A stretch of 14,063 bases of DNA, from IMG/VR virus record IMGVR_UViG_2693429635_000015; one strand, 5' to 3'. The DNA comes from a virus (lineage: Duplodnaviria; Heunggongvirae; Uroviricota; Caudoviricetes). Each line of letters begins with the position of its first letter. Within the stretch, counting starts at the first letter, position 1. Positions 4,769-14,063 of this stretch are shown here, in pieces. The notes beneath the pieces are model-generated. The model had not been told where the DNA came from. It saw only the letters and a program-made list of their open reading frames with translations, and made no database searches. A program made the position numbers and the translations under genes.

Positions 4769-5259
4769 GATTCGATGATTTTCAGAAACGGGTTAGTGGC
4801 TTTCTTCTGCCCCGCCAGGCCAATCAGACGCTGGCGGCTGCTGGGGTCGAGTCCGAGCATTGCCCCCGTGCTGCTCATCTCGGACTCCTGTTCTTTCTTG
4901 GCGGTCAGCTCCGGATTTTTGACCATGCCACCCATTGCACCGGTGATGGTGTTGCCCTGTCTGGCAATATTTTTCACGGCACGTCGCCAGAACTCATAGG
5001 CCACGCACCACCGCTCAAGTACCGCCAGGTCAGTCACGCACAGCAGGCCCTGACCGCAGAGTTCTTTGGTTGTCAGTTGCCACATGATCGTGGCGAGAGG
5101 GAGATCTTCTTCAGCGAACCACTCCGGTGGCTCAACACCTTTGATGGGCGTAAAAACAGGTTCATCTTTATTCAGGGCTCGCTTGCCGGGGTTTCCGGCC
5201 AGCGCCTTGCGCGCCGTTGGCTTGGGGCGACGCCCGGAACGCCCCGCCGTTCCAGCCAT
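4765..5259 (-). CDS. Terminase small subunit (P27-like family)
   Basis: N-terminus [30 protein letters not shown] is characteristic of P27-family small terminase subunits. The first ATG is at 5259 with AGGAG 8 nt upstream; the ORF track's 5268 start is an in-frame GTG that I consider less likely. Confidence 0.8.
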
Positions 5260-5268
5260 ATGCGGCAC

Positions 5269-5384
5269 TCCTGGTTAAATTTCATTTTTCGCGGGTATAA
5301 AAAAACGATGGGGCGGGCAGTCCGGAAGACGTCAGGCCGCAGGGATTTGACCCGCCCCTCCCCTCAGGCAGTTGAGAATTATTA
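5269..5384. other. Candidate cos / terminase recognition region (copy A)
   Basis: Intergenic region between HNH and TerS, where HK97-like phages carry cos. It contains a GC-rich imperfect inverted repeat GGGGCGGGCAG ... TGACCCGCCCC flanking a central GACGTC palindrome. The exact cut site cannot be determined from sequence alone. Confidence 0.35.
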
Positions 5385-5735
5385 TCACTTCAACCGTTCA
5401 CGGGCCGTCTTCGCCTTATGACACGGCCAGCACAGACTCTGCAGATTACAGTCGGCATCAGTGCCGCCATGCGCTTTAGGGATGATGTGGTCAACGGTTT
5501 TCGCCTCGCGCACCACACCAGCACGCAGGCACAACTGGCACAGGCCTTTGTCACGCTTGAGCACACGTTCACGGATAACATCCCATTTCGAACCATAACC
5601 GCGCTGGTGTCGGGACTGGCCTGGCTTGTATTGCTTCCAGCCTTCGCTTTTGTGGCTTTCGCAATAGCCTGACGAGTCAGTGGTGGTATGGCGGCAGCCG
5701 CGAACGCGGCAGGCTTTTGGGGTTCGTGGGGGCAT
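5385..5735 (-). CDS. HNH homing-type endonuclease (phage cos-cleavage accessory HNH), copy A
   Basis: Cys-rich N-terminus (CRVRGCRH...CESH) and an HNH motif (DHIIPKAHGG...N...CWPCH). ATG at 5735 with AGAGGA RBS; the start is supported by the near-identical copy B, which begins MPPRTPKACR. Sits immediately upstream of TerS as in HK97-like phages. Confidence 0.8.
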   Translation of the reverse strand: MPPRTPKACRVRGCRHTTTDSSGYCESHKSEGWKQYKPGQSRHQRGYGSKWDVIRERVLKRDKGLCQLCLRAGVVREAKTVDHIIPKAHGGTDADCNLQSLCWPCHKAKTARERLK

Positions 5736-5885
5736 TGCATAATCCTCTTGGATGGTTCGCGTACGATACGTGGCACCCTTCTCAGAATCGAATCGCACTC
5801 CATTCCGGTTTTGCCATAAACGATCTTTTATGCTTCGCTGGATGTAGTTGATAGTTGTTGAAACTCAATGAACAGGAGTTCACAA

Positions 5886-6221
5886 ATGAATAGTTATGAA
5901 TGGGCATGGCTTTTGAACAAAGATGACACCCTATACTTTTTCCCCGTAGGCCATTCTGTAGAAGGTAATTACAAAATTCACTTTGAGTTGAGCGGTAGTT
6001 GTAACCTTAGAGTCTCAGATGCTGAATTGCATGGTAAACCTGTACTGCTGTTCGAATACTTCGATGAAGATGATGACCGCCCTGCAATAATCGAAATATT
6101 AGAAACAACCACTACAACTGTGGAGGCGATGATCGCACATCTGAATAGTATCGATAGTATTTACCATGAACCGATTTACAAAGCTGTTTACGAGTGGGCT
6201 GTAAAGTTTTTCTATCGATGA
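5886..6221 (+). CDS. Hypothetical protein (111 aa from the second ATG), AT-rich accessory gene
   Basis: ORF track 5868..6221. The second ATG at 5886 has AGGAG at 5874-5878 with 7-nt spacing. Composition is clearly AT-rich relative to the phage structural genes. I recognise no family; an acidic stretch (EYFDEDDD) and a TTTT run are present. Confidence 0.55.
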   Translation: MNSYEWAWLLNKDDTLYFFPVGHSVEGNYKIHFELSGSCNLRVSDAELHGKPVLLFEYFDEDDDRPAIIEILETTTTTVEAMIAHLNSIDSIYHEPIYKAVYEWAVKFFYR

Positions 6222-6321
6222 TACTTCGTTATCTTTCTGGCATTCACAATACCTTTACATATTAATGACATGCCAGCACAATACTGTCACTTACAACCGT
6301 TCGGATTACCTAGAGAAAAGT

Positions 6322-6438
6322 ATGATTCAGGATTTACTGATCGAAGCAATTAGTCACGATAGGATGCATAAAAAGTTAAATGAACTGAATGGCTACTTCT
6401 ACAATCGCAAACATGAAACACAAATACGTGATGAGTGA
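6322..6438 (+). pseudogene. Short ORF (38 codons) running into the IS3 left end; probable truncated gene
   Basis: ATG at 6322; the frame stays open to the TGA formed by the first three bases of the IS3 terminal repeat (6436-6438). Weak RBS. Could also be a chance ORF. Confidence 0.3.
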
Positions 6439-6500
6439 TCTTACCCAGCAATAGTGGACACGCGGCTAAGTGAGTAAACTCTCAGTCAGAGGTGACTCAC

Positions 6501-6800
6501 ATGACAAAAACAGTATCAACCAGTAAAAAACCCCGTAAACAGCATTCGCCTGAATTTCGCAGTGAAGCCCTGAAGCTTGCTGAACGCATCGGTGTTACTG
6601 CCGCAGCCCGTGAACTCAGCCTGTATGAATCACAGCTCTACAACTGGCGCAGTAAACAGCAAAATCAGCAGACGTCTTCTGAACGTGAACTGGAGATGTC
6701 TACCGAGATTGCACGTCTCAAACGCCAGCTGGCAGAACGGGATGAAGAGCTGGCTATCCTCCAAAAGGCCGCGACATACTTCGCGAAGCGCCTGAAATGA
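6501..6800 (+). CDS. insE: IS3 transposase OrfA (InsE-like, HTH DNA-binding)
   Basis: 99-aa product [50 protein letters not shown]... matches my memory of IS3 InsE. GAGGTGA RBS upstream of the ATG at 6501. A probable -1 slippery site (CCAAAAG around 6761-6767) lies near the 3' end. Confidence 0.85.
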
Positions 6801-7663
6801 AGTATGTCTTTATTGAAAAACATCAGGCTGAGTTCAGCATCAAAGCAATGTGCCGCGTGCTCCGGGTGGCCCGCAGCGGCTGGTATACGTGGTGTCAGCG
6901 GCGGACAAGGATAAGCACGCGTCAGCAGTTCCGCCAACACTGCGACAGCGTTGTCCTCGCGGCTTTTACCCGGTCAAAACAGCGTTACGGTGCCCCACGC
7001 CTGACGGATGAACTGCGTGCTCAGGGTTACCCCTTTAACGTAAAAACCGTGGCGGCAAGCCTGCGCCGTCAGGGACTGAGGGCAAAGGCCTCCCGGAAGT
7101 TCAGCCCGGTCAGCTACCGCGCACACGGCCTGCCTGTGTCAGAAAATCTGTTGGAGCAGGATTTTTACGCCAGTGGCCCGAACCAGAAGTGGGCAGGAGA
7201 CATCACGTACTTACGTACAGATGAAGGCTGGCTGTATCTGGCAGTGGTCATTGACCTGTGGTCACGTGCCGTTATTGGCTGGTCAATGTCGCCACGCATG
7301 ACGGCGCAACTGGCCTGCGATGCCCTGCAGATGGCGCTGTGGCGGCGTAAGAGGCCCCGGAACGTTATCGTTCACACGGACCGTGGAGGCCAGTACTGTT
7401 CAGCAGATTATCAGGCGCAACTGAAGCGGCATAATCTGCGTGGAAGTATGAGCGCAAAAGGTTGCTGCTACGATAATGCCTGCGTGGAAAGCTTCTTTCA
7501 TTCGCTGAAAGTGGAATGTATCCATGGAGAACACTTTATCAGCCGGGAAATAATGCGGGCAACGGTGTTTAATTATATCGAATGTGATTACAATCGGTGG
7601 CGGCGGCACAGTTGGTGTGGCGGCCTCAGTCCGGAACAATTTGAAAACCAGAACCTCGCTTAG
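6797..7663 (+). CDS. insF: IS3 transposase OrfB (InsF-like, DDE integrase core)
   Basis: 288-aa product matching remembered IS3 InsF (…[34 protein letters not shown]…[10 protein letters not shown]…). In the -1 frame relative to OrfA, overlapping it by ATGA. Confidence 0.9.
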
Positions 7664-7693
7664 GCCTGTGTCCATATTACGTGGGTAGGATCA

Positions 7694-7862
7694 AAGCGAG
7701 AGGGAGATCTTCTTCAGCGAACCACTCCGGTGGCTCAACACCTTTGATGGGCGTAAAAACAGGTTCATCTTTATTCAGGGCTCGCTTGCCGGGGTTTCCG
7801 GCCAGCGCCTTGCGCGCCGTTGGCTTGGGGCGACGCCCGGAACGCCCCGCCGTTCCAGCCAT
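7694..7862 (-). pseudogene. Terminase small subunit 5' fragment (first ~56 codons) truncated by IS3
   Basis: Identical to the N-terminal coding part of the 4765..5259 TerS ([18 protein letters not shown]...EEDLPLA). The reading frame then runs into the IS3 right end (ORF track 7677..7871). Confidence 0.75.
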
Positions 7863-7871
7863 ATGCGGCAC

Positions 7872-7987
7872 TCCTGGTTAAATTTCATTTTTCGCGGGTA
7901 TAAAAAAACGATGGGGCGGGCAGTCCGGAAGACGTCAGGCTGCAGGGATTTGACCCGCCCCTCCCCTCAGACAGTTGAGAATTATTA
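7872..7987. other. Candidate cos / terminase recognition region (copy B)
   Basis: Same GGGGCGGGCAG...GACGTC...CCCGCCCC architecture as 5269..5384, differing by three substitutions that I could see. Confidence 0.3.
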
Positions 7988-8338
7988 TCACTTTAACCGT
8001 TCACGGGCCGTCTTCGCCTTATGACACGGCCAGCACAGACTCTGCAGATTACTGTCAGCATCAGTGCCGCCATGCGCTTTAGGGATGATGTGGTCAACAG
8101 TTTTCGCCTCACGCACCACACCAGCACGCAGACATAACTGACACAGACCTTTGTCACGCTTCAGAACACACGCGCGGATACTGTCCCACTTCGAACCGTA
8201 GCCGCGCTGATGACGGGATTGTCCAGGTTTGTATTGCTTCCAGCCTTCGCTTTTGTGGCTTTCGCAATAGCCTGACGGGTCAGTGGTGGTATGGCGGCAG
8301 CCGCGAACACGGCAGGCTTTTGGGGTTCGTGGGGGCAT
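7988..8338 (-). CDS. HNH endonuclease, copy B
   Basis: 116-aa ORF with the same HNH motifs as copy A. ATG at 8338 with AAGGAG RBS 8 nt upstream. Confidence 0.8.
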   Translation of the reverse strand: MPPRTPKACRVRGCRHTTTDPSGYCESHKSEGWKQYKPGQSRHQRGYGSKWDSIRACVLKRDKGLCQLCLRAGVVREAKTVDHIIPKAHGGTDADSNLQSLCWPCHKAKTARERLK

Positions 8339-8433: not shown

Positions 8434-8754
8434 TTAAATCAAATTGCCGATAAATTTCGCCTGTACAGACAGAGTCGCACCAGGAACACCAGCAATTCCA
8501 CCTTCAAGGTAATAACCATCCCCAATATCTCTCACAGAGAGATCCATCACATAATCGTTAAGGCCTGCAATAACGTTTTGTGCTGAAGGGTTATGGCGGG
8601 ATACATGAAGTTTCAATACCCCATCTTGTACACGCCCCTGATAGGTAAACCCAAAATCACCACCATTAACCGCATTATCCTTCACAACGACCGTGCCATT
8701 GCCAACATCATTATGACCGCTTCTGAACACAACAAAATAAATGCCGTCTTTCAT
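8434..8754 (-). CDS. Hypothetical protein (106 aa), moron-like gene between spanins and HNH
   Basis: ATG at 8754 with AAGGA RBS 8 nt upstream. Preceded by a ~90-bp AT-rich spacer and followed by the terminator at 8389..8419. Gly-rich with no obvious signal peptide; family not recognised. Confidence 0.55.
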   Translation of the reverse strand: MKDGIYFVVFRSGHNDVGNGTVVVKDNAVNGGDFGFTYQGRVQDGVLKLHVSRHNPSAQNVIAGLNDYVMDLSVRDIGDGYYLEGGIAGVPGATLSVQAKFIGNLI

Positions 8755-9393: not shown

Positions 9394-9853
9394 TTATCAC
9401 CCCACCAGCCTCTTCAAACCGTGCAATCAGGTCACCGATTTTATGTTCATACTGACCGTAACCTGCACCAGGTAATGACGCCCAGATATTGCTGCAACGG
9501 TCGATTGCCTGACGAATATTGCCACGGTCAATCATCGGTAAAGCGCCACGCTCTTTAATCTGCTGCAGAGCTACAGCGTCCTGGCTTTCTGGAGAAAAAT
9601 CTTTCAGGCCAAGCTGTTTACGGTAAGCATCCCACCAGCGTGAAAGAAGCTGGTAACGTCCGGCGGCTGTTGACTTGAGTTTCGGGTTTAGCGTGACAAG
9701 TTTGCGAGGGTGATCGGAGTAATCAGTGAAGAGTTCACCACCGACAATAACGTCATAACCGTGGTTACGTGTCGGTTGTCGTCCGTTATCCGTTCCTTCT
9801 GACCATGCCACCATATCAAGGAAAGCTTTACGCTGGGAATTTAGTACCTGCAT
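9377..9853 (-). CDS. R: Endolysin, lambda R-type lytic transglycosylase
   Basis: 158-aa product ...NSQRKAFLDMVAWSEGTDNGRQPTRNHGYDVIVGGELFTDYSDHPRKLVTLNPKLKS...RYQLLSRWWDAYRKQLGLKDF... is near-identical over long stretches to phage lambda R as I remember it, including the catalytic-region EGT motif. AAGGAG RBS upstream of the ATG at 9853. Confidence 0.9.
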   Translation of the reverse strand: MQVLNSQRKAFLDMVAWSEGTDNGRQPTRNHGYDVIVGGELFTDYSDHPRKLVTLNPKLKSTAAGRYQLLSRWWDAYRKQLGLKDFSPESQDAVALQQIKERGALPMIDRGNIRQAIDRCSNIWASLPGAGYGQYEHKIGDLIARFEEAGGVINEVEL

Positions 9854-9856
9854 AAA

Positions 9857-10183
9857 TTACTCCTTAGAGCCACCAAATTTGTTACCGATTACTCGCATTG
9901 CAGCCCCACGAATAGCATCGACACCGATCAGCCCCACCCCACCACCAATGGCAACAGAAAGTGATTTAGGCCATCCGACATACTCAAGAGCGGATGCAAA
10001 GGTCAGCGTCAGAGCGCCACATAGCAAAATCTCGAGCGTTTTTCGCTTCCAGCCACCACCACCGCCAAAATAGGCGATGCGCAAACCAGCCATAACGATC
10101 GACATAATCACTGCACCCAGCGGTGTGTCTCCACGCCACCAGCTCTGGACCAAGTCCAGCCAGGTATTTGGGTTATGAGGCAT
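9857..10183 (-). CDS. Holin (class I-like, three predicted TM segments)
   Basis: Immediately upstream of the endolysin with a 3-nt gap. Three hydrophobic segments and a charged C-terminus. I chose ATG at 10183 (GAGGT-containing RBS region); the ORF track's longer form starts at a GTG at 10279 that overlaps the methylase 3' end. Confidence 0.6.
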   Translation of the reverse strand: MPHNPNTWLDLVQSWWRGDTPLGAVIMSIVMAGLRIAYFGGGGGWKRKTLEILLCGALTLTFASALEYVGWPKSLSVAIGGGVGLIGVDAIRGAAMRVIGNKFGGSKE

Positions 10184-10225
10184 TTCGTCATCTCTCACCT
10201 CGCGATATTTGCGGGTGCTGTGTTG

Positions 10226-10254
10226 GAAATAAAAAGGCCACGCAACGTGGCCAC
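10226..10254 (-). terminator. Putative rho-independent terminator (minus strand) between methylase and holin
   Basis: Stem GGCCACG / CGTGGCC with a 3-nt loop, followed on the minus strand by TTTTTATTT. The short loop makes this moderate confidence. Confidence 0.45.
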
Positions 10255-10259
10255 CAGAA

Positions 10260-11312
10260 TTATTTCCCCACCAGTTCACTTACCTCTTTCACCGTCTGAT
10301 TAAACCGCTCTGACTCAAGTTCAACACCTAACGCCCGACGCCCCAGCGCCATTGCTGCTTTTATTGTGGAACCGGATCCCATAAAAAAATCAGCAACCAG
10401 ATCACCAGGTCGACTACTGGCATTGATTATTTGCCTGAGCATATCCGCCGGTTTCTCACACGGATGTTTACCCGGGTAGAACTGAACGGGTTTATGCATC
10501 CAGACATCGGTATAAGGCACGGAGACTGATACGGAGAAATAGCGCCGGAGAGATTTAAACTCATCCAGCAATTCAGAATATTTGCGATTCAGTGAATCAT
10601 AAGACGCCACCAGCTGGTGGTGTGGTTGTTCCAGTTGTTGTTCCTGAAACTTCTCTGCCGCTATACGGGAAAACAGTGCCTGTAACTTCCGATAGTCAGC
10701 CTCATTCGGCAACTGCCACTGACTGGCACCAAACCAGTGGGAAACCATATTTTTCTTACCTGTGGCTTCGGCAATTTGTTTTGCCGTTATACCCAGTTCG
10801 GCACGAGCATCCCTGAAATACGATATCAGCGGTGCCATTATGTGCTGTTTGAGTTCCCTTTCTTTTGCCGCATAGCCGTCACTTTTGCCGCGATATGGCC
10901 CCTGGTAATGTTCAGCAAACAGAACGCGCTCTGTGGCAGGAAAATATGCGCGCAGACTTTCTTTATTACACCCATTCCAACGTCCGGACGGCTTCGCCCA
11001 GATGATATGGTTAAGCACGTTGAAACGTTCACGCATCATGATCTCAATATCAGATGCCAGGCGATGCCCACAGAACAGGTAAAGGCTTCCGGCAGGTTTC
11101 AACACCCGCCAGAACTGGGCCAGACAGTGGTCCAGCCACTTAAGGTAATCTTCGTCCCCTTTCCACTGATTGTCCCAACCGTTGGGTTTCACCTTGAAAT
11201 AAGGCGGATCGGTAACAATCAGGTCAATGGAATCATCAGGCAGGGACTGAATAAAATGCAGGCAATCAGCGTTGATTAAATCAACACTGTTTATTTTTAC
11301 AGTATTTTTCAT
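10260..11312 (-). CDS. DNA methyltransferase (amino-MTase, beta-class motif order; probably N6-adenine)
   Basis: 350 aa with catalytic motif IV DPPY near the N-terminus (IVTDPPYF) and AdoMet-binding motif I FxGxG near the C-terminus (FFMGSGST). No adjacent restriction endonuclease gene, so it looks like an orphan phage methylase. Confidence 0.85.
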   Translation of the reverse strand: MKNTVKINSVDLINADCLHFIQSLPDDSIDLIVTDPPYFKVKPNGWDNQWKGDEDYLKWLDHCLAQFWRVLKPAGSLYLFCGHRLASDIEIMMRERFNVLNHIIWAKPSGRWNGCNKESLRAYFPATERVLFAEHYQGPYRGKSDGYAAKERELKQHIMAPLISYFRDARAELGITAKQIAEATGKKNMVSHWFGASQWQLPNEADYRKLQALFSRIAAEKFQEQQLEQPHHQLVASYDSLNRKYSELLDEFKSLRRYFSVSVSVPYTDVWMHKPVQFYPGKHPCEKPADMLRQIINASSRPGDLVADFFMGSGSTIKAAMALGRRALGVELESERFNQTVKEVSELVGK

Positions 11313-11461
11313 GGATCAGTAAGCGTAACTCTGGTAGGCTCACTCTGCTTTTGCGCTAAAGCAGTGGGCCGTGGTTCGCTTGTGACCAGTAAGCATGAGC
11401 GAATGGCTGGCAGGTGCTACCAACACCCACCAGCCGCCCATTTTCACAAATTAAAAGTCCT

Positions 11462-11656
11462 TCATTGCTGAAGGCGTCTGTAACAGCCGAACTGGTAATC
11501 TGCCAGCCCCGCCATAACCAACTGGGTCAGTATTAACTGACAGCGTTCGCGTGAAAGATATGTGTTTTGTGCAATCTCCCCGACTGTTGCCGGTTCGATG
11601 CTTAATTCATTAAAAACAACTTTCGCCGTTTCTGTCATATCTTGCTGTTTTAGCAT
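11462..11656 (-). CDS. Small hypothetical protein (64 aa), possibly HTH DNA-binding
   Basis: Within ORF 11462..11680; the internal ATG at 11656 has AAGGA 8 nt upstream. The segment TVGEIAQNTYLSRERCQLILTQL resembles a helix-turn-helix. First gene after the 11779-11804 terminator on the minus strand. Confidence 0.4.
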   Translation of the reverse strand: MLKQQDMTETAKVVFNELSIEPATVGEIAQNTYLSRERCQLILTQLVMAGLADYQFGCYRRLQQ

Positions 11657-11778
11657 GTCTTTTTTCCTTCTGGTTAACATGACATACCAATAACTCTTGT
11701 CTAAAAAGCCAGCAAGATAAAAAGTCAGTATTCACGACCACCAGCGTGTTTACCGTACTGCACCAGGTTTACAGGTAC

Positions 11779-11804
11779 AAAAAAACCCGCTCGACGGCGG
11801 GTTT
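11779..11804 (-). terminator. Rho-independent terminator (strong on minus strand, weak on plus); candidate tR'-like late terminator
   Basis: 7-bp stem AACCCGC / GCGGGTT with a 6-nt loop, followed on the minus strand by 7 T (plus-strand A run 11779-11785). On the plus strand only TTT follows. Confidence 0.6.
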
Positions 11805-11961
11805 AAGTTGTGTGGCGAAGTAACCACTCTTAACACGATATAATACTTTTTGCGTACGCGTTAACTTTTTCTGTAGTATTTAGTGTAAGATTCTTCACAA
11901 GATAGATACTTTGGAGTACATGATGTAAAGTGCTGTATGCATAAACAGTACAAAGGATATC

Positions 11962-12483
11962 ATGATGAACAAATTAGCACGCTTATTATTAACAGCAAGC
12001 TCAATTGCACCTGTTTGCGCAACTCTATTTTTTATTGGATATGTAAAAGATACGGTTTGGCTGATGCAATATAGCTTATGCGTTGGCATAGCAAGTTGGT
12101 TATTAGCAATAGGCCTGATTCAATATGCTGAGAAACAACTTGAACCTCTGACAAAAAATATTAGTTCAGTTTCTCCCGCTAACAAAGAAGTAACTAATTA
12201 TTTCTTAAGCTATTTATTCCCTCTCCTAGGAACAGACTCTATTGCTGAAAATAAAGCATATGCGTTATTCTTTTATTTGTCATTGTTATTTTACATCAGC
12301 TTTTCCGAGAACTATAACTTTAACCCAGTATTGTCACTTATCGGTTATAAATTTTACGAAGCTGAAGATGACACCGGCGTAGGTTTTGTATTGATTTCTA
12401 AATCAGTCATTACTGATATTAAAGATATCAAATTTACAGTTATTCAATTAACAGACTACACATTTCTACATGTTAAAGGATAA
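11962..12483 (+). CDS. Integral membrane protein (173 aa, ~4 predicted TM helices plus a ~60-aa C-terminal soluble tail); first gene of candidate accessory/defense cassette
   Basis: AAGGA RBS before a tandem ATG at 11962. Hydrophobic segments at roughly residues 8-28, 35-55, 80-92 and 100-115. Strongly AT-rich codon usage, unlike the flanking phage genes. Opposite strand to all surrounding phage genes. Confidence 0.65.
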   Translation: MMNKLARLLLTASSIAPVCATLFFIGYVKDTVWLMQYSLCVGIASWLLAIGLIQYAEKQLEPLTKNISSVSPANKEVTNYFLSYLFPLLGTDSIAENKAYALFFYLSLLFYISFSENYNFNPVLSLIGYKFYEAEDDTGVGFVLISKSVITDIKDIKFTVIQLTDYTFLHVKG

Positions 12484-12488
12484 TAACC

Positions 12489-13373
12489 ATGGCACTTTTT
12501 GCAGTAATAGATAATACAATTGCAACGAGAATTGTTAGAGTCGAACTTGATGCAACAGCAAGTACTTCTGTTACGGCCATTTTCCAACAACAGCGTCAAT
12601 ATTTTGAAAGTCATCATAACAATATGATACCATTCTATGCCGGTTATACACCAAAACATAGTGAGTGTTTTGAAATACAAAACTTTACTGATTCTGCACG
12701 CCTGATTGACGCAGTCAATAGGCCTACCGCCGTGCCTGTCTGGGATCCCAGCCAAATTGATATTGGTTATATTAAAGCATTATTTGTTGGTGTTGACGCG
12801 CCAGCAAACCCCAATATTATTGCGCTACAAACCTTCAACAAAAAACAAATCTTAGATACCTCAAAATCATTCTTTGGAAAGCTTTTTGCAAGCAAAACTA
12901 CCTTTAGTAAAGCTAATAGCATCGGTTTTAATGTTGATGATAAACTAGTTGCAATAATTATCAATGATACAATACGATTTAAGAGTTTCTTTAATCTAAG
13001 AAGCATTTTTGACATGTTGTCCTATTTTTCTGCTGCTACTGACCAAGAACTTAATGCATTTAGTCAACTTAGTGTATTTTCTACTCCCCAAGGTTTTGAT
13101 CTAAAATCCGTTGCAGATACAGTGATAAGAAATAAAGTAACACTAATAAATCAGACTGGGATGCTAACACCCCAAAATATGTCAAAGTTTAAATCCGAAG
13201 CTGCTAAAGTCAATTTCCCCTTACAAACCATAATAGTTGGCGGTGTTGAGAAAATTGTCATGCCTTCATCAAAAAAAGAAATAAAAGCCCTTCTTGACTT
13301 TCTTGAGGAAGACATTTGGATTTCTGGGATAAGTGGAAGACGCTTTAAATCGAATTCAAAGCGCCCAATATAA
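12489..13373 (+). CDS. Hypothetical cytoplasmic protein (294 aa); second gene of candidate accessory/defense cassette
   Basis: ATG at 12489 lies 5 nt after the upstream stop, with AAAGGA 8 nt upstream, so the two genes are translationally coupled. AT-rich, no TM segments, no motif I can assign with confidence (an R-x5-H pattern near residue 36 is noted but weak). Its stop is 21 nt from the convergent Q stop. Confidence 0.65.
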   Translation: MALFAVIDNTIATRIVRVELDATASTSVTAIFQQQRQYFESHHNNMIPFYAGYTPKHSECFEIQNFTDSARLIDAVNRPTAVPVWDPSQIDIGYIKALFVGVDAPANPNIIALQTFNKKQILDTSKSFFGKLFASKTTFSKANSIGFNVDDKLVAIIINDTIRFKSFFNLRSIFDMLSYFSAATDQELNAFSQLSVFSTPQGFDLKSVADTVIRNKVTLINQTGMLTPQNMSKFKSEAAKVNFPLQTIIVGGVEKIVMPSSKKEIKALLDFLEEDIWISGISGRRFKSNSKRPI

Positions 13374-13394
13374 CTAGAAGACAGTTAAGAATAG

Positions 13395-13742
13395 TTAACA
13401 GGCAAGAGTGCAAACAATGCCTTCAATGAAACCAAGCGATGTTTGCAACTCTTTCCTGATAGTCCCATCCGAACACTTTCTCTTCTTAGCAATGGCTCGC
13501 AATGAAATCCCTACTACAAAATGGGCTATAACTAACTCATACTCTTCTGGTTTGTACTTTCTTAATCTAGCTACGCACCCATCGATCATGAGCCCCTCAT
13601 CATCATCACACTGAATCCGGGACTTTTTGCCATGAGGTAAAAGCCCCTTGAAGCCAGCGGCTACCGGTTGCCAGTCCACTCCGCTATTGTCTGAAGCAGC
13701 CCAAGCTCCCCAACGATCCATCACTTCATACATATCACGCAT
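13395..13742 (-). CDS. Late-gene antiterminator Q (small Q class, phage 82 / DLP12 QuuD-like)
   Basis: 115 aa from the first ATG at 13742 (GGAG RBS 7 nt upstream); the ORF track's 13757 start is TTG. Contains RWGAWAA and Cys-rich motifs (CDDDE...DGC, ...CSDG) that I associate with small Q antiterminators. Position (after a DUF1364 gene, upstream of the lysis genes) fits. Confidence 0.65.
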   Translation of the reverse strand: MRDMYEVMDRWGAWAASDNSGVDWQPVAAGFKGLLPHGKKSRIQCDDDEGLMIDGCVARLRKYKPEEYELVIAHFVVGISLRAIAKKRKCSDGTIRKELQTSLGFIEGIVCTLAC

Positions 13743-13759
13743 CAACTTTCTCCACAAAA

Positions 13760-14050
13760 TCAGGCCAGCACGCCAATTGCCAGCGCACGATCGATAAAAC
13801 GAAATATCAGCTCCAGCTGGGAGCCATACTTCTCTTCAAATGCCACGGTATCCGCATGCAGCTCGTCGTGATGCTTTCTGCACAAAGGCAACACAAAGAG
13901 GTCATGCGCTTTTGTACCCATCCCACCCTGACCGTGGCCTATCAAGTGGTGGGGATCATCAGCAGGCTTTCCACAACATGCACACGGCTGTGTCTTAACC
14001 CAGCGCGTGTACTTTTCATTAACCCAGCGGCGACGTTTTGGGCGTAACAT
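13760..14050 (-). CDS. DUF1364 / YbcO-like zinc-binding putative nuclease (Nin-region protein)
   Basis: 96 aa with CxCC...HH...C..HH cysteine/histidine clusters. GGAG RBS 6 nt upstream of the ATG at 14050. Size and position immediately upstream of Q resemble ybcO of DLP12-type prophages; assignment from memory. Confidence 0.55.
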   Translation of the reverse strand: MLRPKRRRWVNEKYTRWVKTQPCACCGKPADDPHHLIGHGQGGMGTKAHDLFVLPLCRKHHDELHADTVAFEEKYGSQLELIFRFIDRALAIGVLA

Positions 14051-14063
14051 AAAAGACTCCGGC

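Follow-up and report, generated by a model that had tools for sequence, protein, structure and literature searches.

Two AT-rich genes lie antisense to the phage genes around them in a 14,063-nucleotide stretch of virus DNA (Caudoviricetes; IMG/VR record IMGVR_UViG_2693429635_000015), here called the window, meaning the stretch at its full length. What do the two genes, at 11962–13373, encode, what governs their expression, and what kind of site do they occupy? An earlier note, made from the letters alone, had viewed them as a candidate two-gene antiphage system made of a membrane sensor and an effector, with Kiwa as the closest match. The PADLOC, Pfam and fold matches reported below are all to Kiwa, and the pair is almost certainly an intact Kiwa operon, kwaA-kwaB. 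By sequence comparison the operon belongs to a clade marked by a short KwaA, remote from the system of Escherichia coli O55:H7 RM12579 behind the solved structures. It is very probable, for the reading as a whole, that this short-KwaA operon is horizontally acquired cargo of a lambdoid (HK97-like) prophage, with the mechanism and the SOS control proposed below. Coordinates are collected in Table 1.

The locus is assigned to Kiwa because both proteins have full-length PADLOC matches, KwaB passes the Pfam PF16162 threshold, both predicted folds match Kiwa structures, and a KwaA profile reaches KwaA in the PDB. KwaA is matched by PADLOC model PDLC00216 (E=1.9e-83; residues 1–172 of the 173-position model) and by 11 further KwaA models, and its homologues bear the precomputed Pfam assignment PF28043 (KwaA). 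KwaB is matched along its full length by PDLC00225 (E=1.1e-149), by five other KwaB models, and by PF16162 (KwaB/DUF4868) over residues 108–281, with 30.1 bits (gathering threshold 26.3). The hidden Markov model searches advised in the earlier note, with KwaA and DUF4868 models, thus return Kiwa for both proteins. A broad KwaA profile (69 sequences, taken from an exhaustive search that gave 1138 representative clusters at E<=1e-3) hits the PDB entry 'Kiwa protein KwaA' at E=1e-14. A transporter subunit, a lysis protein and a structural protein were considered and rejected, as no such family was matched while Kiwa models match full length.

Structure predictions converge on the same family. The AlphaFold2 model of KwaA (predicted local distance difference test, pLDDT, 77.2) has helices at residues 2–28, 32–59, 76–96 and 98–114, and strands between residues 130 and 170. 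Its significant Foldseek matches in the PDB are only the cryo-electron microscopy chains of KwaA (9mrg/9mrx/9mrr; probability 1.0, TM-score 0.54–0.69, 18% identity). The four transmembrane segments described earlier are borne out by this model, in which four long helices and a C-terminal beta domain superpose on the solved four-segment KwaA; hydropathy alone supports two or three, since two segments pass a Kyte-Doolittle value of 1.4 over 19 residues, a third passes over 15 residues, and the third transmembrane helix is weak. The KwaB model (pLDDT 79.7) finds four KwaB entries as its only significant matches, 9mrx_D, 9mtn (two chains) and 9nyu, at probability 1.0; TM-score is about 0.5, identity 12%, and the root-mean-square deviation about 8 Å over some 310 columns, and at this moderate TM-score the domain arrangement of the modelled KwaB is uncertain.

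The Kiwa system and its gene calls are already known, and the sequence is in RefSeq under the Kiwa name. Records of kwaB read 'Kiwa anti-phage protein KwaB-like domain-containing protein' and, in one case, 'DUF4868 domain-containing protein'; kwaA is a 'KwaA family protein' in newer records and a 'hypothetical protein' in others. The alternative that the pair might be genuinely uncharacterised is not supported, given these labels, which are attached to identical copies of kwaB and, for some, to kwaA. The O55:H7 RM12579 system (P0DW45/P0DW46; 9mrg, 9mrr, 9mrx, 9mtn, 9nyu; PMC11785009) shares with the window the kwaA-kwaB operon, a helical membrane KwaA with a C-terminal beta domain, and a DUF4868 KwaB, and its structures are the only ones matched by the folds predicted for the two window proteins. 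The window proteins are shorter (KwaA 173 versus 195 amino acids, aa; KwaB 294 versus 315 aa), and the genes, 5 nt apart in the window (TAACC, between kwaA stop and kwaB start), overlap in O55:H7. The Shine-Dalgarno sequence of kwaB (AAAGGA) lies within the 3' end of kwaA. These readings confirm the earlier description of two tightly coupled plus-strand open reading frames (ORFs). The real start of kwaA is probably the second ATG, at 11965, because homologues begin with MNK; the product would then measure 172 aa, as in RefSeq. Homologous loci show recurrent G-rich positions in the stretch from the LexA box described below to the kwaA start codon.

Kiwa is among the commonest defence systems. 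The 1412-bp pair of the window was found, at 99.2–100% identity, in 33 of 5426 complete E. coli genomes. Loci of the clade occur in E. coli, Klebsiella, Salmonella, Serratia, Pantoea, Citrobacter, Proteus, Xenorhabdus, Photorhabdus and Avibacterium, as in 59 IMG/VR viral contigs; a scan of genome contigs returned only 6 loci, and a narrower alignment of distant KwaA families matched no viral loci. In every clade locus with downstream sequence (more than 70) kwaB lies 3' of kwaA on the same strand, and in most, from at least 12 genera, the gap is no longer than about 25 nt. Exceptions are locus L009, where the gap is wider, and loci L004 and L007, where alignment begins only at KwaB residue 55 or 93. 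The pair is co-conserved down to about 33–40% identity in many genera. Co-occurrence, which the earlier note had advised to check, is thus strict in this clade. Within any one locus (L001–L083) KwaA is always better conserved than KwaB, as in the identity pairs 78/63, 73/52 and 50/37%, and these sequence comparisons suggest a faster diversification of the KwaB effector or of its inhibitor-exposed surface.

The habitats are also recurrent, prophage and satellite hotspots being those the note had pointed to. The gene Q is convergent 3' of kwaB in 50 of the 59 viral-contig loci, and holin/lysozyme genes are divergent upstream where recognised. Klebsiella phage ST846-OXA48phi9.1 (MK416021; QBP07766/QBP07765; L003 4157–5549) and Proteus mirabilis prophages carry operons of the same clade at this antisense Q-holin position; identities to the window are 68% (KwaA) and 47% (KwaB) in the former, 68–73% and 47–52% over the two hosts, and the pairs were deposited as 'hypothetical protein', that of the Klebsiella phage in a published genome. 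In the Proteus prophages Q is of another family (DUF1133/PF06576); locus L017 has the same arrangement with a PF06323-type Q. A sister type of the same clade (171 + 297 aa; 49% KwaA and 39% KwaB identity) marks the hotspot between psu and integrase of P4-like satellites, as in avian pathogenic E. coli (APEC) O18, rather than a lambdoid prophage; carriage of Kiwa in this hotspot had been reported (PMC9122126). A Salmonella copy resides in a chromosomal island. O55-type loci examined lie in chromosomal contexts resembling defence islands, not in the Q slot. The exact arrangement of the window over 9800–14063 was found in no complete E. coli genome; IMG/VR contig UViG_2648501230_000011 reproduces it exactly, with products 100% identical.

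Upstream of kwaA the window features a predicted LexA (SOS) box. Its core is a CTGT-N8-ACAG palindrome (11933–11948), and the full 20-mer agrees with the gammaproteobacterial consensus TACTGTATATATATACAGTA at 16 of 20 positions. Strict CTGT-N8-ACAG motifs occur twice in the window, against 0.2 expected. Conservation was analyzed in 71 loci with at least 130 nt of upstream sequence, reduced to 39 distinct sequences, in which KwaA identity to the window ranges from 39 to 100%. CTG-N10-CAG is present in 39/39 of them and strict CTGT-N8-ACAG in 35/39. The C, T, G, T and the C, A, G positions are 100% conserved, a figure somewhat inflated for the arms by taking the best-scoring 20-mer of each upstream region as the box; flanks are conserved at about 35–45%, and the AT-rich spacer varies, so that 35 different 20-mers are found. 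The distance from box end to start codon is 11–25 nt across the clade. Scores of at least 15/20 were reached by 38/39 kwaA upstream regions and by 12/1804 control segments (130 nt each) drawn from these loci. Unrelated surroundings do not abolish the box: it is retained in the P4 satellite (where it reads TACTGTTTTTATATACAGAT), in chromosomal islands and in prophages whose Q is of another type, and it is found in the Klebsiella phage and the Proteus prophages described above. Non-Kiwa cassettes residing in the same slot of phages mEp460, SfII and WGPS2 have no LexA box. The possibility that the box belongs to the hotspot and not to Kiwa was rejected, as the other cargos of the slot are devoid of it and Kiwa keeps it elsewhere. 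On this pattern the box is likely to be a functional LexA operator.

Similar boxes mark loci of the O55:H7 type, which were fetched with the partial sequence of the solved KwaA recovered from a PDB alignment. In enterobacterial loci of this type a LexA-like box lies 66–71 nt before the start codon, in contrast to the 11–25 nt of the window clade, and 5–7 nt 5' of an extended -10 (TGgTAAAAT, TGaTAAAAT, TGtATAAT or TGtTACAAT). Such loci include one with a KwaA 98% identical to the O55 protein, where the distance is about 70 nt, and those of Moellerella, Pantoea dispersa and the Enterobacter kobei type. The box is imperfect in the O55-type locus of Vibrio cholerae. The Kiwa paper makes no mention of LexA or SOS (PMC11785009), a literature search found no paper linking Kiwa or DUF4868 with LexA, and the link between the two has probably gone unreported. 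A broader proposal is favoured by a narrow edge: that Enterobacterales Kiwa operons, in the short-KwaA clade and the O55:H7 type alike, are direct members of the LexA regulon. They would be expressed at a basal level and boosted by SOS when RecA is activated by damaged DNA or by DNA entering the cell, such as conjugative single strands or phage DNA processed by RecBCD, and prophage copies would be switched on by the prophage-inducing signal.

A second LexA-like box, TACTGTAAAAATAAACAGTG (16/20; 11285–11304), falls in codons 3–9 of the methylase gene, which starts at 11312 on the minus strand. This box is unchanged in mEp460; related methylases retain it in part (TACTGTAAAAATATCCAGTT, CACTGTAAAAATATCCAGCT), and distant ones have lost it. 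Either a genuine operator or simple coding-sequence conservation could explain it.

The Kiwa cassette has its left boundary at about 11871/11872; where the window is aligned with mEp460, TUM14664 and the Klebsiella phage, the phage that carries a different cargo ceases to be similar at ...GCGTTA. To the left of this boundary lies a conserved element common to phages with different cargos. Its core reads ...CCACTCTTA(A/T)CA, about 11 variable nt, then TTTTGCGTACGCG. Where Q is of the PF06530 type, nearly every locus has these motifs 100–150 nt 5' of kwaA; among the kwaA and other-cargo loci compared, the element and its core motifs (GCGTACGCG; CCACTCTT) are absent from all those with a DUF1133-type Q (the Proteus prophages included), a PF06323-type Q or no Q. 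The GCGTACGCG stretch (11852–11860), which holds the 8-bp palindrome GCGTACGC, is invariant with every PF06530-type Q examined, and CCACTCTTA(A/T)CA is about 20 nt away. A plus-strand promoter may be drawn by eye, with a -35 TTGCGT inside the element and cargo-specific -10-like hexamers 17–18 nt downstream, in four cargos.

In the canonical Q cassette (doi 10.1101/651190), pR' and a sigma-dependent pause element follow the Q gene, and the late genes come after a terminator. In the window the PF06530 Q, a terminator and then the late/lysis genes are present; kwaB and Q are convergent, with stop codons 21 nt apart, and the putative promoter element is about 1.5 kb from Q, displaced by the cassette. 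By analogy with the canonical layout, and because only 21 nt separate the stops of Q and kwaB, the element is read as the late promoter and Q-loading region, with a short leader and tR'. The Kiwa cassette (~11872–13394) would then be wedged between Q and the putative pR', upstream of the late transcript and not inside it. The pair had been placed exactly between Q and the first late genes; this is right on the Q side, and on the other side the conserved element, with its minus-strand terminator, intervenes between cassette and late unit. A terminator scan found none between kwaB and Q in the window, the Klebsiella, Pantoea and mEp460 loci having a G+C-rich hairpin there. As no terminator parts the two genes, the convergent transcripts of kwaB and Q may overlap.

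The position had also been likened to that of stx in Shiga toxin (Stx) phages, an analogy that holds only roughly. The neighbourhood is indeed the same, and the Stx2a-converting phage WGPS2 features the element, the small ORF and the methylase of the window. In WGPS2, Q is followed by an antisense cargo of two genes, then by the element, the small ORF, the methylase, tRNAs, and stxA. The stx site is, on this gene order, a different, downstream site, because stxA lies 3' of the element, small ORF, methylase and tRNAs. On the late strand downstream of the element, stx is therefore Q-dependent, whereas Kiwa, encoded on the opposite strand with a control region of its own, is located upstream of the element and on the same side of the putative late promoter as Q. 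Other cassettes reside antisense in the slot occupied by Kiwa (Table 1). Among them the SfII pair, in two genes between Q and the element as Kiwa is, encodes proteins unrelated to Kiwa. The window looks like a mosaic with a joint at about 11782. Leftward it resembles mEp460 (72-aa ORF, methylase, holin); rightward it resembles E. coli prophages of the TUM14664 type (Kiwa, Q), in which the methylase is missing. Exchange of modules may use the conserved element as a recombination joint.

How the operon might work can be argued from the characterised system. There, KwaA tetramers and KwaB dimers form a supercomplex in the inner membrane, which becomes active where a phage attaches, where DNA is ejected or where conjugation takes place; through DUF4868, KwaB binds the entering DNA and stalls replication, so that late transcription is blocked and the cell survives, and Gam inhibits KwaB unless titrated by RecBCD (PMC11785009). 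DNA-contacting residues of the studied KwaB are R142, R167, K187, R233, N134 and D169 (PMC11785009); at 12% identity, no reliable residue-level alignment to the KwaB of the window was obtained. By analogy, the window system is likely to work broadly in the same way, the extent of carry-over at 12–18% identity being uncertain. KwaA tetramers at the inner membrane would hold KwaB dimers in a supercomplex, and KwaB would bind incoming DNA via DUF4868, stall replication and block late transcription without host death. A promoter of the cassette's own, under the LexA operator, would give basal expression in the resting lysogen, and de-repression would follow when RecA is activated by DNA damage, by incoming single-stranded or linear DNA, or by a prophage-inducing event. 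Conjugative DNA entry induces SOS. A related prophage encodes a LexA-family (S24) repressor, and the same SOS signal would trigger prophage induction; SOS-boosted Kiwa might then protect the induced cell from superinfection, or be damped by convergent Q transcription.

Several points weigh against the reading of the locus as a working, SOS-controlled Kiwa operon. Identity to the O55:H7 proteins is 18% for KwaA and 12% for KwaB. KwaA matches NCBIfam NF041622 (E=5e-12) at 46 bits, under the 100-bit equivalog cut-off, and is therefore a family member and not an equivalog of the O55:H7 type, which fits the RefSeq wording 'KwaA family protein'. Direct sequence searches of the PDB, by phmmer with both proteins and with clade profiles A1 and A2, returned no Kiwa chain, and the solved proteins were reached by the broad KwaA profile and the fold search only. 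Because of the low identity and the sub-threshold KwaA, the system may depart from O55:H7 Kiwa in the residues that contact DNA, in its sensitivity to Gam and in its phage range. No experiment on the short-KwaA clade was identified in the literature, and the tested Kiwa systems of ECOR8, ECOR12, ECOR49 and D9 could not be linked to it. As to control, the selection of best-scoring 20-mers has been mentioned, no box was found at the O55-type loci of Vibrio owensii, Photobacterium and Aeromonas, and a sigma-70 consensus scan, covering 11872–11961 and minus strand 11805–11871, gave no convincing kwaA or late promoter. The identity values, the KwaA score and the literature would also suit a relic or diverged relative of Kiwa that does not defend, or that serves the prophage, by superinfection exclusion at injection or by control of its own replication; that one prophage slot is the main habitat could point to such a phage-serving role. 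A relic is hard to reconcile with two intact ORFs, 99–100% identical across 33 genomes, with co-conservation of the pair to ~33–40% identity in many genera, and with carriage in P4-satellite and chromosomal-island contexts typical of defence cargo. Moreover, when five Kiwa systems representing different clusters were tested, every one gave defence (PMC11785009), and superinfection exclusion by Kiwa would itself count as antiphage defence. Loss or change of function to this degree is highly improbable.

The control region may be read in other ways. CTGT-N8-ACAG might not be a working LexA operator but another element of the promoter or untranslated region (UP-like, -10-like, or the site of another regulator), Kiwa being constitutive. 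The box of the window has 4 mismatches to the consensus, the three O55-type loci outside Enterobacterales named above lack it, and the sigma-70 scan mapped no kwaA promoter; Kiwa cloned with its native promoters protects unstressed cells (PMC11785009), so its expression does not require SOS. This view is nevertheless unlikely, since the conserved positions are exactly those which define LexA sites in gammaproteobacteria (CTG/CAG arms at 100%, AT-rich variable spacer), while the flanks drift, and since the box is retained where the genomic surroundings are unrelated, and by two Kiwa clusters that space it differently from the start codon, with as few as 12 of the 1804 background segments scoring as high. 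LexA-repressed genes such as recA and lexA normally show basal expression, and several boxes upstream of kwaA nearly match known SOS boxes of umuDC and recN. Placement of the cassette upstream of the late transcript can also be disputed. Were pR' immediately after Q, as in lambda and in the canonical cassette (doi 10.1101/651190), late transcription would run antisense through Kiwa, and 11783–11871 would be only a terminator or the promoter of the cargo. The 21 nt between the Q and kwaB stops, a gap filled in other loci by just a hairpin, leave no room for a promoter and a Q-loading site. The absence of a consensus promoter on the minus strand of 11805–11871 and the plus-strand promoter drawn from TTGCGT in four cargos are in favour of the cassette lying inside the late transcript; against it, the element goes with the Q family whatever the cargo, and the strong minus-strand terminator lies ~50–60 nt downstream of a -10-like position, the geometry expected of pR', leader and tR'. 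A cassette within the late transcript is thus quite improbable, and its insertion between Q and the putative pR' is the preferred arrangement.

The gene call itself adds little, Kiwa being common, named in RefSeq, and already reported in prophages and satellites. Neither a LexA operator before Kiwa, nor the use of the interval from Q to the element as a slot for exchangeable antisense cargo, separate from the stx site, was found described. The conserved operator offers a cheap testable hypothesis on the regulation of a membrane-embedded, non-abortive defence, and would tie Kiwa to RecA/RecBCD biology; a connection of Kiwa with RecBCD and Gam is already known (PMC11785009). Between Q and the putative late promoter, lambdoid phages with a PF06530 Q have a slot that houses Kiwa, PDC-M53 and several unassigned cassettes, which makes it a place to seek new defence genes.

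Table 1. Features of the window and cargos of the same slot in other phages. Positions refer to the window unless a locus (L) is given.
Feature	Position	Strand	Remarks
kwaA ORF	11962–12483	+	173 aa from first ATG; ORF list
kwaB ORF	12489–13373	+	294 aa; ORF list
kwaA Shine-Dalgarno AAAGGA	11952–11957	+	read off the sequence
Predicted LexA (SOS) box TGCTGTATGCATAAACAGTA	11931–11950	.	ends 11 nt before first ATG, 14 nt before 11965
Cargo-specific 5' region of Kiwa cassette	11872–11961	+	putative site of promoter(s)
Conserved Q-linked element	11783–11871 (89 bp)	-	common to phages with different cargos
Intrinsic terminator in element	hairpin 11804–11783, then U run	-	scan and folding: -20.1 kcal/mol, z=-2.4
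Q antiterminator	13395–13757	-	Pfam PF06530, E=1.5e-45; RefSeq 'antiterminator Q family protein'
DUF968 gene	right flank, beyond Q	-	
72-aa ORF, DNA methylase (PF01555), holin (PF05106), lysozyme, Rz	left flank	-	
HNH, terminase, portal, protease genes	further left		HK97 type
Other slot cargo, mEp460	L002 2624–3550	antisense	308-aa protein, no family match
Other slot cargo, Shigella phage SfII	L088 2117–3731	antisense	SfII_50/SfII_49, PADLOC candidate PDC-M53A/B, E=2e-32 and 3e-54
Other slot cargo, Stx2a_WGPS2	L089 2613–4176	antisense	343-aa + 179-aa pair, no assignment

Base composition sets the pair apart from the rest of the window. G+C content is 0.346 over 11962–13373 (0.326 in kwaA, 0.357 in kwaB), against 0.519 elsewhere, 0.46 in Q and 0.479 in the methylase gene. 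The by-eye estimate of about one third, versus half in the flanks, was thus accurate, as was the remark that the pair is transcribed against its neighbours, all adjoining phage genes being on the minus strand. An explanation of the low G+C by membrane-protein composition only was rejected, the soluble KwaB being equally AT-rich. An Rfam search of the window gave no match.

An ORF of lower G+C content between Rz and HNH (8434–8754, minus strand) is named 'GrlR family regulatory protein' in RefSeq, and is sub-threshold with Pfam GrlR (24.1 versus 26.8 bits). A second island of low G+C content (~0.38–0.40) includes two plus-strand ORFs, at 5868–6221 (117 aa) and 6265–6438 (57 aa). Neither has a PADLOC match, and the 117-aa ORF also has no match in Pfam or NCBIfam; the island, which adjoins an insertion sequence (IS), may be another moron. 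The latter is an IS3-family element at ~6492–7663, made by orfA (6492–6800) and orfB (6797–7663; NCBIfam transpos_IS3, E=3e-101). The late region is rearranged: the 5' portion of the small terminase gene, together with the sequence ahead of it, is present twice as a 300-bp direct duplication (98%; 5086–5385 and 7689–7988), a second copy of the HNH endonuclease lies alongside, and one terS copy is truncated (7677–7871) and adjoins the IS3-family element.

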